Virus record (IMG/VR): IMGVR_UViG_3300044611_001018
Reading direction: 5' to 3' (one strand)
Source of the DNA: a virus
Taxonomy: Duplodnaviria; Caudoviricetes
Length of the DNA: 64,000 nt
The position numbers were made by a program, and so were the translations under genes. The notes below the pieces were generated by a model. That model did not search any database. It saw only the letters and a list, made by a program, of their open reading frames with translations, and was not told the DNA's origin. This document shows positions 21,078 through 41,505 of the stretch, piece by piece; the stretch's first letter is position 1; each line of letters begins with the position of its first letter.

Positions 21078-21129
21078 TGCTTTGAATGTTGACCTTAATA
21101 GTATAAGGGTTTGACAGTTATCTGTCAAG

Positions 21130-21202
21130 TGCTCCTTGCGTGGATCGAACACGCCTCAGGCGAATTATGAGTTCGCTGCATTCACCAGATTGCTAAAGGA
21201 GC
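21130..21202 (-). tRNA. tRNA with CAT anticodon (Met or Ile2/lysidine type)
   Basis: GCTCCTT/AAGGAGC acceptor, GCGAA-CTCATAA-TTCGC arm, GTTCGA T-loop. Confidence 0.9.
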
Positions 21203-21335
21203 AAGTGGGGATAGTCGAACTTCACCCAATTTGGGCAAAGTCCTCGGACCCTGCCCAACCATCCCCATACGACGCTACGGAAGATATCCGTAGTAGAAGT
21301 TGGCGTCTACTTAGTTAATCGCTAAGGACTACCAA
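21203..21335 (-). ncRNA. Unassigned structured RNA between two tRNAs
   Basis: 12-bp and 9-bp stems with four G-U pairs on minus strand; AACTTC/GAAGTT possible pseudoknot. Confidence 0.55.
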
Positions 21336-21407
21336 TAGGACTGCTGAGAATTGAACTCAGTTCACACCGTTATAAGCAGTGGGCCTTAACCAATAGGCGA
21401 CAGTCCC
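21336..21407 (-). tRNA. tRNA-Ile(TAT)
   Basis: Cloverleaf, CACTG-CTTATAA-CGGTG arm. Confidence 0.9.
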
Positions 21408-27616: not shown

Positions 27617-27624
27617 ATAAGACA

Positions 27625-27653
27625 ATTATACCAGTGATGGATTTAATTGTCAA
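27625..27653 (-). promoter_or_regulatory. Consensus sigma70 promoter for tRNA-Arg/Ala
   Basis: TTGACA-N17-TATAAT. Confidence 0.9.
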
Positions 27654-32233: not shown

Positions 32234-33835
32234 TTACCTACTAATCTCTTCCCAGTCCATAGACCCGTGAATATCTGCACCATTAGAATTGGAAGAAGCA
32301 ACGAGAGAAAGTTCATAAGGTGTTCCTGTTAATGCATCCCTTTCCAACTGAAACTTAAATAATGCCTCTTTAAGAATATCAACTGGTGTTGAACCTTGAT
32401 TAGACCCGTACAAATATCCAGATGCTAATATTCTTCCACCAGTATAAGTTCCACCATCAATTTTATATTCCACAGAACTATCAATACCAGCATCGACCCA
32501 AGTTCCACCAACAGATGTTCCTGTTGCTCTTACTTGCCAGTTATAAACTGCATTGTTTGTAATACCAAGAATTGAAAGTGCAGTCATAATTACAATTGCA
32601 TCCAATCTATTTGGCGTTGCTTTAAGACGAATTGATAAAACAGTATAATAAGTTCCTGCAGTTGTTAAATCAACTGGTGTTTGAACAGGTGTTCCTGCTG
32701 CTTGCTGCAATCCACGAAGTTCATAACCACCCTCTGAAATTACAGTAGAACAAACTTGTTTTAATGTGCTCGCACTCGTTGTAATTCCAGTATTTGCAAT
32801 CTCATATCTCAAAGGTAATGATGCTGTTGTGATATAAGTTGTATTGATAAGATTTGCGTGATGGAATGAGTGGCAGTGAATAAACTTACCATCAACTACA
32901 AATCCTAGTCTTACCGTTCCAAGTCCCAACCATTCAATATCCATCCACATAATTTGTGCTTTGCTGATATCTAATGTGACACCAGATGGATTGAGATGCC
33001 CAGGACCAAGCATCGTATCAACATTCCAACTTGCTTGTGATACTCTTGTTTCTGTTGTAATTCCTGGAACATATGTTCTTTCTACAAAATATAAATTACT
33101 TCCATCAAGTTCTAAATACATCCCATTATCTGCACCAAAGTATCCTACTCTTTGACGAAGATTTGATTTTGTTGGATTCATTACAAACGTATTCAATACC
33201 TGTAATGATTTTCCTGGTTGATAAGAGAATACTTTTGTAGTTTCTCTGATGATTGATGCGGTGCTTCCAACACCAACAGTCATATTAATCAAACCTTGTG
33301 CTGTCGAAAATCCAACTGTTGAACCAGTACCAACAACTAAACCACTCCAAAGATTATTGTCTCTATATCTGTGAGATGAATCAAAGAGAGTGAGTGGAGT
33401 AGACATCCTCTGCCTACCAAATGCATCTGTTGCTATTGGTGGTAATTCGATATCAACAGTTCCTGTAACTGGAAATGGATTTGTGGTGCTGACTGGTGAA
33501 TTATTGAGGTTAATTGATACTTGTCCAGTGGTTCCAATACCTACAGTATTCAGTAATGTAGAAATACCGACTGGAAGATATGGTGTTGTTAATGCACCAC
33601 TGGTTCCAACTTCAACTATATGGGAATGAATTGGATTTTCTGGTGTACTTGTAACAGTTACTATTCCAGGAATACTAATATCACCATTAATTGTAATACT
33701 AGAACTTCCAAGAGATACTGGAAATGGATTGTCAACACTAACTGGTTGACCATCTTTAGTTGCAATATTATTAACTTCAAATAAAGATCTTTCTTGATTT
33801 AAATAATCTTGATTTTGTATATTCCACTGTGCCAT
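32234..33835 (-). CDS. Probable virion structural protein
   Basis: G/T/V-rich beta protein, repeated NPFPV motif, DAFGR. Confidence 0.6.
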   Translation of the reverse strand: MAQWNIQNQDYLNQERSLFEVNNIATKDGQPVSVDNPFPVSLGSSSITINGDISIPGIVTVTSTPENPIHSHIVEVGTSGALTTPYLPVGISTLLNTVGIGTTGQVSINLNNSPVSTTNPFPVTGTVDIELPPIATDAFGRQRMSTPLTLFDSSHRYRDNNLWSGLVVGTGSTVGFSTAQGLINMTVGVGSTASIIRETTKVFSYQPGKSLQVLNTFVMNPTKSNLRQRVGYFGADNGMYLELDGSNLYFVERTYVPGITTETRVSQASWNVDTMLGPGHLNPSGVTLDISKAQIMWMDIEWLGLGTVRLGFVVDGKFIHCHSFHHANLINTTYITTASLPLRYEIANTGITTSASTLKQVCSTVISEGGYELRGLQQAAGTPVQTPVDLTTAGTYYTVLSIRLKATPNRLDAIVIMTALSILGITNNAVYNWQVRATGTSVGGTWVDAGIDSSVEYKIDGGTYTGGRILASGYLYGSNQGSTPVDILKEALFKFQLERDALTGTPYELSLVASSNSNGADIHGSMDWEEISR

Positions 33836-40278: not shown

Positions 40279-41505
40279 TCATACTCCAGGTTTTTTAACA
40301 GGTCTTGAAGGATTATTTAATGGATTTTTTGAAAATCCTGCACGATGATCAACTGGTTTTTTCTGAGCACCACCATAAGTATCTGCTCTTGGGTCTTCAC
40401 CACGTTCGATTGCACCACGAATACCATGCATCTTCATTGATCTATTTCTAGAATCGCTTCTATACTTTCCATCATCATTAGTTCCCTTTTTAAAAGCATC
40501 ACTGGCATGTTGTGCTTCCTTTGCCTTCATTTTATCAAGATTAGCACTTTTAAAAGCTTCAATGATTTCATCAATAGTATCAAAGTCAAGTTCGTTTGCC
40601 ATAATCCATTCTGCATCTTCTAAGGTATCTGCATAACCTTCTACACAAAGATACTCAAGAACGATATCATAAGTATCAAACTCTTCACCCAATTTGGAAG
40701 CAACCTTACCAGCACCAGTGGAGACTGCTCTTGCTGCCTTACCTACAGCACTCTTAGCACCTGCTTTTGCTGCACCTGCTGCACCCTTTACATTACGCTT
40801 TGCAACTGCTGCCTTATTCTTAACAGATTGTACTGCTCTGTTTTTGACATCAGATGCTGCTTGCTTAGCAGAACGTGCTGCTGCATATCCTGAGACTGCT
40901 GCAGATGCTGCCTTTTGCTTTACTTTACCAATTGCAGATTTAATTTTTGATTTAACTCTAGAACCTACATGCTTGACAACTGCAGAGCGAAGTTCACCTC
41001 TACCTTTGCTTGACTGAGTTTTAAGACCTGCACCCTTAACTAAATTATGCTTACTTGCATATTTTGCAAGACCAACATGAGACTGCTGCTTAAGTCCCTT
41101 TGTAGTCTTCTCAGCAGATCCTTTAGCAGAAATAGCTTTTGTTTTAACTTTCTTAACTGTACTCTTAACTGCACCCTTTACCTTTTCCTTTGCTGCAGAG
41201 ACTGCTGCTGCTCTCTCAGCACCACGCTTAGATGATGAAGTTGACTTTTGATATGCTCTAGCATCTTTTGATCCAGCAGGAGCATATGGATTAAGTTCCA
41301 TAATTACTGCTTCAAAAATATCATCTAACTCATCAAGTTCAAGACCTTCTTCTAAAACTTCATAGACAGTTTCTTCAACAATGTCACTGAAATTCTCTTC
41401 AGTCAGATCTTCGATACCGTCGTATTCCTCTGAAAGGAATTCTTCAACCAATTCAATTGGTTCATAAATTGCTTGGTATGCTTCAGAAATATTAGTAAAG
41501 TTCAT
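40279..41505 (-). CDS. Acidic/Lys-Ala-rich late protein, probable internal head protein
   Basis: TATAAATA at 41531-41538; histone-H1-like K/A core flanked by acidic EE motifs. Confidence 0.6.
   Translation of the reverse strand: MNFTNISEAYQAIYEPIELVEEFLSEEYDGIEDLTEENFSDIVEETVYEVLEEGLELDELDDIFEAVIMELNPYAPAGSKDARAYQKSTSSSKRGAERAAAVSAAKEKVKGAVKSTVKKVKTKAISAKGSAEKTTKGLKQQSHVGLAKYASKHNLVKGAGLKTQSSKGRGELRSAVVKHVGSRVKSKIKSAIGKVKQKAASAAVSGYAAARSAKQAASDVKNRAVQSVKNKAAVAKRNVKGAAGAAKAGAKSAVGKAARAVSTGAGKVASKLGEEFDTYDIVLEYLCVEGYADTLEDAEWIMANELDFDTIDEIIEAFKSANLDKMKAKEAQHASDAFKKGTNDDGKYRSDSRNRSMKMHGIRGAIERGEDPRADTYGGAQKKPVDHRAGFSKNPLNNPSRPVKKPGV

Follow-up and report, generated by a model that had tools for sequence, protein, structure and literature searches.

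The 133-nt spacer between tRNA-Ile(UAU) and the following CAU tRNA belongs to a family of structured non-coding RNA modules that is conserved and had not been listed before. Using pattern scans and a covariance model, we recovered this family from 79 loci, with 52 distinct sequences and a single copy per locus, and all of these loci lie on uncultured viral or metagenome contigs. Comparative data reveal a composite architecture, in which a conserved 68-nt core is followed by an accessory 62-nt 3' hairpin. The core helices are maintained by compensatory change, and the tips and the 3' hairpin are swapped freely. By analogy with RNAC and RNAD of phage T4, we consider it somewhat probable (roughly 55%) that the module is a tRNA-spacer RNA excised by host tRNA-processing enzymes in uncultured freshwater T4-like cyanophages.

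The DNA analyzed here, referred to as the window, is a stretch of 64,000 nt. It is T4-like cyanophage DNA, bearing PhotoRC-II and wcaG RNAs as well as ten tRNA genes, and its DNA relatives are Synechococcus and Prochlorococcus myoviruses. The exact stretch is present in lake and freshwater metagenomes dating from 2016 to 2024. ARAGORN and Rfam both place the spacer on the minus strand at 21203-21335, exactly 133 nt between the two tRNAs, in agreement with the position and flanks described in an earlier note on this DNA. The features of the locus are collected in Table 1.

Table 1. Features of the spacer and its flanks in window coordinates; RNA position p corresponds to window coordinate 21336 - p
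Feature	Window coordinates	Strand	RNA positions	Basis and remarks
tRNA-Ile(UAU)	21336..21407	(-)		ARAGORN; Rfam tRNA 56.3 bits; discriminator A immediately precedes the module
HP1	21300..21335	(-)	1-36	MFE fold
J12, unpaired linker CUUCUA	21294..21299	(-)	37-42	
HP2	21275..21293	(-)	43-61	7-bp stem CUACGGA/UCCGUAG, loop UAUCU
J23, linker NGUCGUA	21268..21274	(-)	62-68	N is C in the window
HP3, long form, accessory	21206..21267	(-)	69-130	Covariation
3' tail CUU	21203..21205	(-)		RNA 131-133; leader of the next tRNA, U at -1; read from the sequence
tRNA, anticodon CAU	21129..21202	(-)		ARAGORN; Rfam tRNA 52.5 bits; Met, or Ile2 if modified
Promoter-like site TTGACA-17-TATACT	21100..21128	(-)		11/12 consensus matches

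An upstream ORF ends 4 nt before tRNA-Ile, and a promoter-like site lies ~500 nt upstream. The near-consensus promoter that directly follows the CAU tRNA, upstream of a phd-like gene, marks the end of the tRNA unit. Given this placement of promoters and the short distance between the ORF and tRNA-Ile, the ORF, tRNA-Ile, the module and the CAU tRNA are probably carried on a single transcript, as far as can be read from the DNA. The Tyr-Arg spacer of the window (27617-27653, minus strand) contains TTGACA-17 nt-TATAAT, a perfect sigma-70 consensus; as the stretch after the CAU tRNA is also promoter-like, some tRNA spacers appear to be promoters and not folded RNAs. We also observed that tRNA-Ile(UAU) is predicted at 87-93 nt in many relatives (e.g. 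L100:2704-2791 and L019:2761-2850), where the variable arm is long and class II-like and the D stem has 3 bp; the window copy is an ordinary 72 nt.

In the tRNA sense, the spacer RNA folds at -55 kcal/mol, compared with -37.4 +/- 3.7 kcal/mol for shuffled sequences (z = -4.75; 0 of 200 shuffles as good), and the plus strand reaches only -46.4 kcal/mol. The wobble pairs work only on the tRNA-sense strand, as had been noted before, and on that strand the spacer is a genuine structured RNA, exactly bracketed by two tRNAs. A search of Rfam 15 at E-values up to 10 matched the two tRNAs, with no match in the spacer itself. Contigs of two RNA libraries span the core part of the spacer and hint weakly at its expression; they may be DNA carry-over, and no RNA ends are visible in them. 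One such contig follows the spacer for its first 89 nt and is divergent beyond, which led us to suspect that the 5' part exists elsewhere. Gaps in RNA-library coverage, affecting the upstream ORF as well as a portion of the spacer, were considered as an expression signal and discarded as uninformative on expression.

Relatives were collected through three scans. A 20-mer from the 5' part of the spacer matched 32 metagenome contigs, 29 of them real (L106, L111 and L113 are chance matches); a 19-mer from the second hairpin, HP2, gave 42 IMG/VR contigs; and a gapped pattern in which only the two linkers were fixed yielded additional variants, after rejection of the chance matches L160, L164, L165, L167 and L168. 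L170 is a chance match as well. Exact 22- and 24-mers from the window had no match in IMG/VR, because the relatives have another base at one loop-closing position and a different 3' hairpin. The covariance model, R1, was built from 12 members with the window left out. It scores the window at 91.2 bits (E 1e-23) and recovers one copy in each of the 79 loci. The window carries all elements that define the core, namely the HP1 base stem starting right after the discriminator, the CUUCUA linker, a 7-bp HP2 with a 5-nt loop and the NGUCGUA linker. The smallest complete members are 73 nt long (L148 and L156), and folding of independent members of 73-122 nt gives the same three hairpins with free linkers. 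A lone HP1-like extended hairpin was seen behind tRNA-Gly at L027:695-753 (15.9 bits), with the rest of the core missing, and the HP1 interior may be a separate sub-module on its own.

Within the window, R1 matches nowhere outside the spacer. In particular, there is no match to the Asn-Val spacer, with which the module shares no sequence, and the two are distinct RNAs, as the earlier note had supposed. The nearest relative's kink-turn module is likewise not matched by R1. A BLAST search with the spacer, run on 50,697 cultured phage records, returned chance matches only, and the module is missing from the 185,579 prokaryote genomes searched. Neither the module nor the 133-nt sequence of the spacer was found at the 80 IMG/VR loci fetched through the neighboring phd-like gene, although one of them has an HP1-like hairpin by itself. 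Only one of these 81 sources, the window included, thus carries the module, which makes it rare and implies that it is not essential.

HP1 opens with the base stem UUGGU/GCCAA (RNA 1-5/32-36), which follows the family consensus UUGGY/RCCAA, and continues through GUC/GAC (7-9/29-31) to the tip CUUAG-CGAUUAA-CUAAG (10-26). The first nucleotide after the tRNA is part of the first HP1 base pair. On this common base stem, the family displays 21 distinct forms of HP1 of 16-39 nt; the smallest (16 nt in total) holds no more than a GNRA tetraloop inside, and the largest is a 39-nt extended hairpin. J12 is identical in all 42 contigs that were chosen by the HP2 sequence alone, a minority having an extra C ahead of it, and it is unpaired in every fold. 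The GUCGUA of J23 is similarly invariant in the contigs chosen by HP2 alone and unpaired in all folds; the first base of this linker is A, G or U elsewhere in the family. The HP2 loop has a variant, UGUCG.

When copies that follow one tRNA type are compared, the 32-nt block from J12 to J23 is 95-98% identical, a figure that is inflated by ascertainment, since every scan fixed 16-20 core bases. In the same copies, identity is 77-93% for the adjoining tRNA of the same anticodon, 64-88% for HP1 and 63-71% for the tail. The invariant unpaired linkers and HP2 look like a recognition surface. A search for a partner of the linkers within the window gave no convincing complementary site; a 15-nt identity of the spacer with 40683-40697 and a 2-mismatch complement at 33606-33619 are both at chance level. 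A kissing pair between an HP1 loop AGAUA and the HP2 loop UAUCU suits some members, but we dropped it because it fails in members with a GNRA-loop HP1 and because the types of HP1, HP2 and HP3 combine freely. By eye, an 11-nt tetraloop receptor at UAUGG and a promoter inside HP1 were also considered, and short or variant members are without the parts that either would need.

The helices were evaluated on a model-based alignment of the 52 distinct sequences, in which 95.7% of cells pair. Both sides have changed in 14 of the 27 pairs, compared with a mean of 6.4 in shuffled alignments (0 of 500 shuffles as high), and slid controls were 42-54% paired. Across these sequences, HP1 has five pairs with two-sided change, including U-A to C-G, G-C to A-U and G-C to C-G. 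HP2 is paired in 99.7% of cells; its closing pair changes from G-U to A-U, and two linked two-sided swaps convert CUACGGG/UCCGUAG to CUCUGGG/UCCAGAG (L158, L159 and L163). For the 16 long-form sequences, an MFE-type model is paired in 97.8% of cells and shows eight two-sided changes, five of which fall in the outer HP3 stem. The inner HP3 hairpin is 98.9% paired, with G-C, G-U and A-U all seen at one pair. RNAalifold on MAFFT alignments of mixed architectures under-called HP1 and HP3 due to misalignment, and the model-based alignment was used instead.

The long form of HP3 consists of an outer stem (69-79/120-130), a conserved 5' internal strand GGGCAGGGUCCGA (80-92) and an inner hairpin (93-104/108-119), and is found in 21 distinct sequences. 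Most relatives shorten, replace or drop it. Other forms of HP3 include a 7-bp hairpin with the loop GCANNGU and an intermediate form, and in some members without HP3 a different module directly follows J23. A pattern for long HP3 had nine matches in IMG/VR, eight of them real, and all eight of the real ones lie behind the core. The tail in relatives consists of A and 2-4 mostly pyrimidine bases, followed by the next tRNA.

Two further observations concern this 3' region. In the long HP3, the invariant strand GGCAGGGUC at RNA 80-92 (window 21244-21256, minus strand) and the strand UGGGUGAAGUC are each able to pair with GGACUUUGCC; as they compete for it, the two helices are mutually exclusive and a switch is possible. 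Three sequences break both of these alternative helices at one position. Separately, a ~54-nt module starting with GAUAGAGGGUAAGCCUCUGUUAU recurs after the core linker (L083:1367-1420, L093, L099, L117, L122, L126, L132, L137 and L143) and after HP3 (L094, L104, L136 and L140). Since it follows either element, it is a separate exchangeable unit.

This comparative picture changes the fold that was originally drawn for the spacer. The earlier note had described one 133-nt fold held together by a long-range pseudoknot, where the data show a core and an accessory hairpin. Two of its stems, CUUAG/CUAAG and CUACGGA/UCCGUAG, are now backed by covariation. Its 12-bp stem survives as 11 bp, five of them changed on both sides, but 8 of 16 sequences break the twelfth pair. 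The 9-bp stem continuing from it can form, but it excludes the better supported 10-12 bp hairpin at 93-104/108-119, and it has a C-A mismatch in the very sequence that shows a compensatory change in that inner hairpin. The proposed GACG/CGUC pairing falls: 81-91% of its cells are paired with no compensatory change, 5 of 16 sequences break G32-C62, C62 varies freely, and members with a short HP1 do not have the element. GAC pairs with GUC at RNA 7-9 instead, with a G-C to C-G swap in eight sequences. The compensatory changes that had been expected in homologous spacers are thus found in all supported helices, but neither in GACG/CGUC nor in the pseudoknot.

The pseudoknot itself would join the 5' bulge AACUUC to GAAGUU in the 3' domain of a single 133-nt RNA, perhaps one that is tRNA-like or can be aminoacylated. 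The six bases are complementary in the window, and five of the six pairs are possible in 16 of 16 long-form sequences. However, one pair is broken in 13 of these 16 and the rest never vary, so that covariation is absent; AACUUC is invariant even though the 3' domain is missing in most members; and GAAGU pairs locally with GGACU, where a compensatory change is seen. Nor does any tRNA model from ARAGORN or Rfam match. No cloverleaf, acceptor and T-arm mimic or T-loop hairpin was found in the spacer, and the Rfam tRNA, tmRNA and YrlA models are without a match there; a permuted or armless tRNA, considered by eye, lacks needed parts in short or variant members. We regard this single-RNA reading as very improbable.

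The position of the module relative to tRNAs is nearly fixed. Of the 79 copies, 71 abut the end of an ARAGORN tRNA within 2 nt: Thr-UGU (28 copies), Ile-UAU (22), Ser-UGA (8), Gly-UCC (6), Asn (3), Leu-UAG (3) and Pro (1). Of the eight others, at least three (L095, L103 and L159) lie behind tRNA-type 3' ends that ARAGORN missed. Seven different tRNAs are thus seen upstream of the core, and at least nine downstream. A predicted tRNA-Leu(CAA), often seen downstream of the module (L148:5301-5372), scores 30.3 bits against an Rfam tRNA cut-off of 29, and may be an aberrant tRNA or a tRNA mimic.

The Ile-CAU site holds other inserts in related phages. The nearest relative of the window (G001) matches it downstream at 100% identity and in tRNA-Ile at 97%, and its Ile-CAU spacer is an unrelated 74 nt made up of a kink-turn-type hairpin and a palindromic hairpin. 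Hairpins of ~50 nt with a kink-turn signature recur at this site (L001:1428-1501, L003, L004, L009, L022, L031, L052, L067 and L082), displaying GCC, a 3-nt bulge, GA opposite CUGA-GGC and a covarying tip; some of these relatives also bear the palindromic hairpin ATTCGCTATTTGCAAATAGCGAAT. Among the 80 loci fetched through the phd-like gene, from which the spacer classes were derived, most have a spacer of 0-3 nt and no module, and others have 22-29 nt with one module, 54-56 nt with the other or 74 nt with both. Spacers of 411-608 nt (L014, L015, L017, L044, L057 and L074-L077) leave room for a small gene or a long RNA. As these classes differ and none contains the 133-nt sequence, the Ile-CAU site is a slot for exchangeable inserts.

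We propose that the module is co-transcribed with its flanking tRNAs. Host RNase Z would cut after the discriminator and free the 5' end of the module, and its 3' end would be freed when RNase P cuts in front of the next tRNA. This would yield a discrete 133-nt RNA, persistent like RNAC and RNAD of T4, with a protein or another RNA docking on the invariant linkers and HP2. Its stability would be favored by a first base that lies inside a helix and a 3' end that lies next to one. RNase Z prefers U after the discriminator, as seen in work on Bacillus subtilis and Synechocystis. Of the 572 distinct tRNA trailers in these loci, 82% start with T and 44% with TT, so the UU start of the module would be a generic processing signal, and the U-rich trailer starts fit RNase Z cutting after the discriminator.

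The strongest competitor to an excised, persistent RNA is a purely cis-acting aid to processing, whose hairpins guard the adjacent tRNAs against misfolding and present clean RNase Z and RNase P sites, after which the piece is degraded. HP1 starting at +1 after the discriminator and the short U-rich leader ahead of the next tRNA suit such a role, as do the freely exchangeable tips and the unrelated hairpin modules that occupy the same site in relatives, most of which manage with 0-3 nt. An insulator would need stable helices, yet it is the unpaired linkers and the HP2 loop that are best conserved, and on balance we find this explanation unlikely, while taking it seriously. Less probable again is a recombination linker or selfish cassette: DNA exchange would keep its core uniform, and the core would act as a patch of homology through which phages shuffle tRNA genes among themselves. 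The range of tRNAs that flank the same core would be expected of it, and so would the free combination of HP1, HP3 and further modules and the different spacer of a nearest relative that is otherwise identical downstream. Compensatory changes in HP1, HP2 and HP3 and strand-specific wobbles, however, indicate selection on RNA pairing, and the module has neither target-site duplications nor a promoter. Mobility of this kind can coexist with an RNA function.

There is a small chance that the module is a self-cleaving ribozyme of a new class and takes the 3' trailer off the tRNA, the job proposed for theta ribozymes. Its exact abutment on the tRNA 3' end resembles theirs (PMC10879173), and invariant junction nucleotides between variable, covarying helices are what such an RNA might display. 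Against this, no Rfam ribozyme family matches at E-values up to 10: the HDV-type, hammerhead, twister, twister-sister, pistol and hatchet models found nothing in the long or the 73-nt form. An HDV-like fold is a nested double pseudoknot in which P1 encloses the P2 strand and P3/L3, with a catalytic C in J4/2 ahead of the 3' P2 strand. It is impossible here, the short HP1 having a 4-nt loop (GUAA or GCAA) as the only sequence inside its first helix, and an alternative HDV-type P1 (RNA 2-7/40-45) is mismatched in short members. Three hairpins in a row, with no closing helix or supported tertiary pairing, are not a known catalytic architecture, and the UU start is generic to trailers in these arrays. 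We give equally long odds to the core being a new catalytic or ligand-binding RNA that matures phage tRNA 3' ends without host RNase Z; if true, cyanophages would have a non-HDV equivalent of the theta ribozymes.

The excised-RNA reading aside, the family is a well-supported Rfam candidate, with clear covariation, a fixed junction with the tRNA 3' end and modular exchange. Together with the other modules found in these arrays, it suggests that cyanophage tRNA arrays are operons of tRNAs and structured RNAs. The module marks recombination between tRNA cassettes, and its invariant linkers provide a concrete target for binding and cleavage assays.

Several known systems share features with the family. 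The Asn-linked hairpin string and the kink-turn hairpin of cyanophage tRNA arrays occupy the same niche, are modular and have a UUGG start after the tRNA, but in sequence and fold they are unrelated to the two-hairpin core. In Escherichia coli, the 3'ETS-leuZ and ITS fragments are by-products of tRNA-operon processing that act as sRNA sponges. They offer a precedent for persisting tRNA-operon by-products acting in trans via unpaired sequence; unlike the module, they are short, weakly structured and chromosomal, with known partners. PeSL cassettes are mobile regulatory cassettes proposed for T4-type phages, defined by an early promoter and a stem-loop that flank shuffled genes. The module shows the shuffling behavior, and no promoter-like site was found inside it.

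Theta ribozymes are HDV-like RNAs of gut Caudoviricetes that lie within 5 nt of the tRNA 3' end and are proposed to handle the trailer (PMC10879173). Like the module, they are compact structured RNAs directly at phage tRNA 3' ends, but their nested double pseudoknot cannot form in the module, and hosts and habitat differ. The closest parallel is provided by RNAC and RNAD of T4, stable RNAs without a known role (PMC3014915, PMC9697503). There is no homology in sequence or structure: when R1 was run without filters on the T4 tRNA region, scores reached at most 6.9 bits, at unrelated positions and not in the rnaC/rnaD sense. RNAC ends in a tRNA-like T arm, which the module does not have, and, unlike the T4 RNAs, the module family is modular and moves between tRNAs. 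The T4 RNAs are, like the module, small non-coding RNAs in a T4-type tRNA cluster (139 and 119 nt), and they too lie directly behind a tRNA: rnaD starts 1 nt after tRNA-Arg, with rnaC 6 nt further on. The family is new, and its kind, stable RNAs in phage tRNA clusters, has been known since T4.
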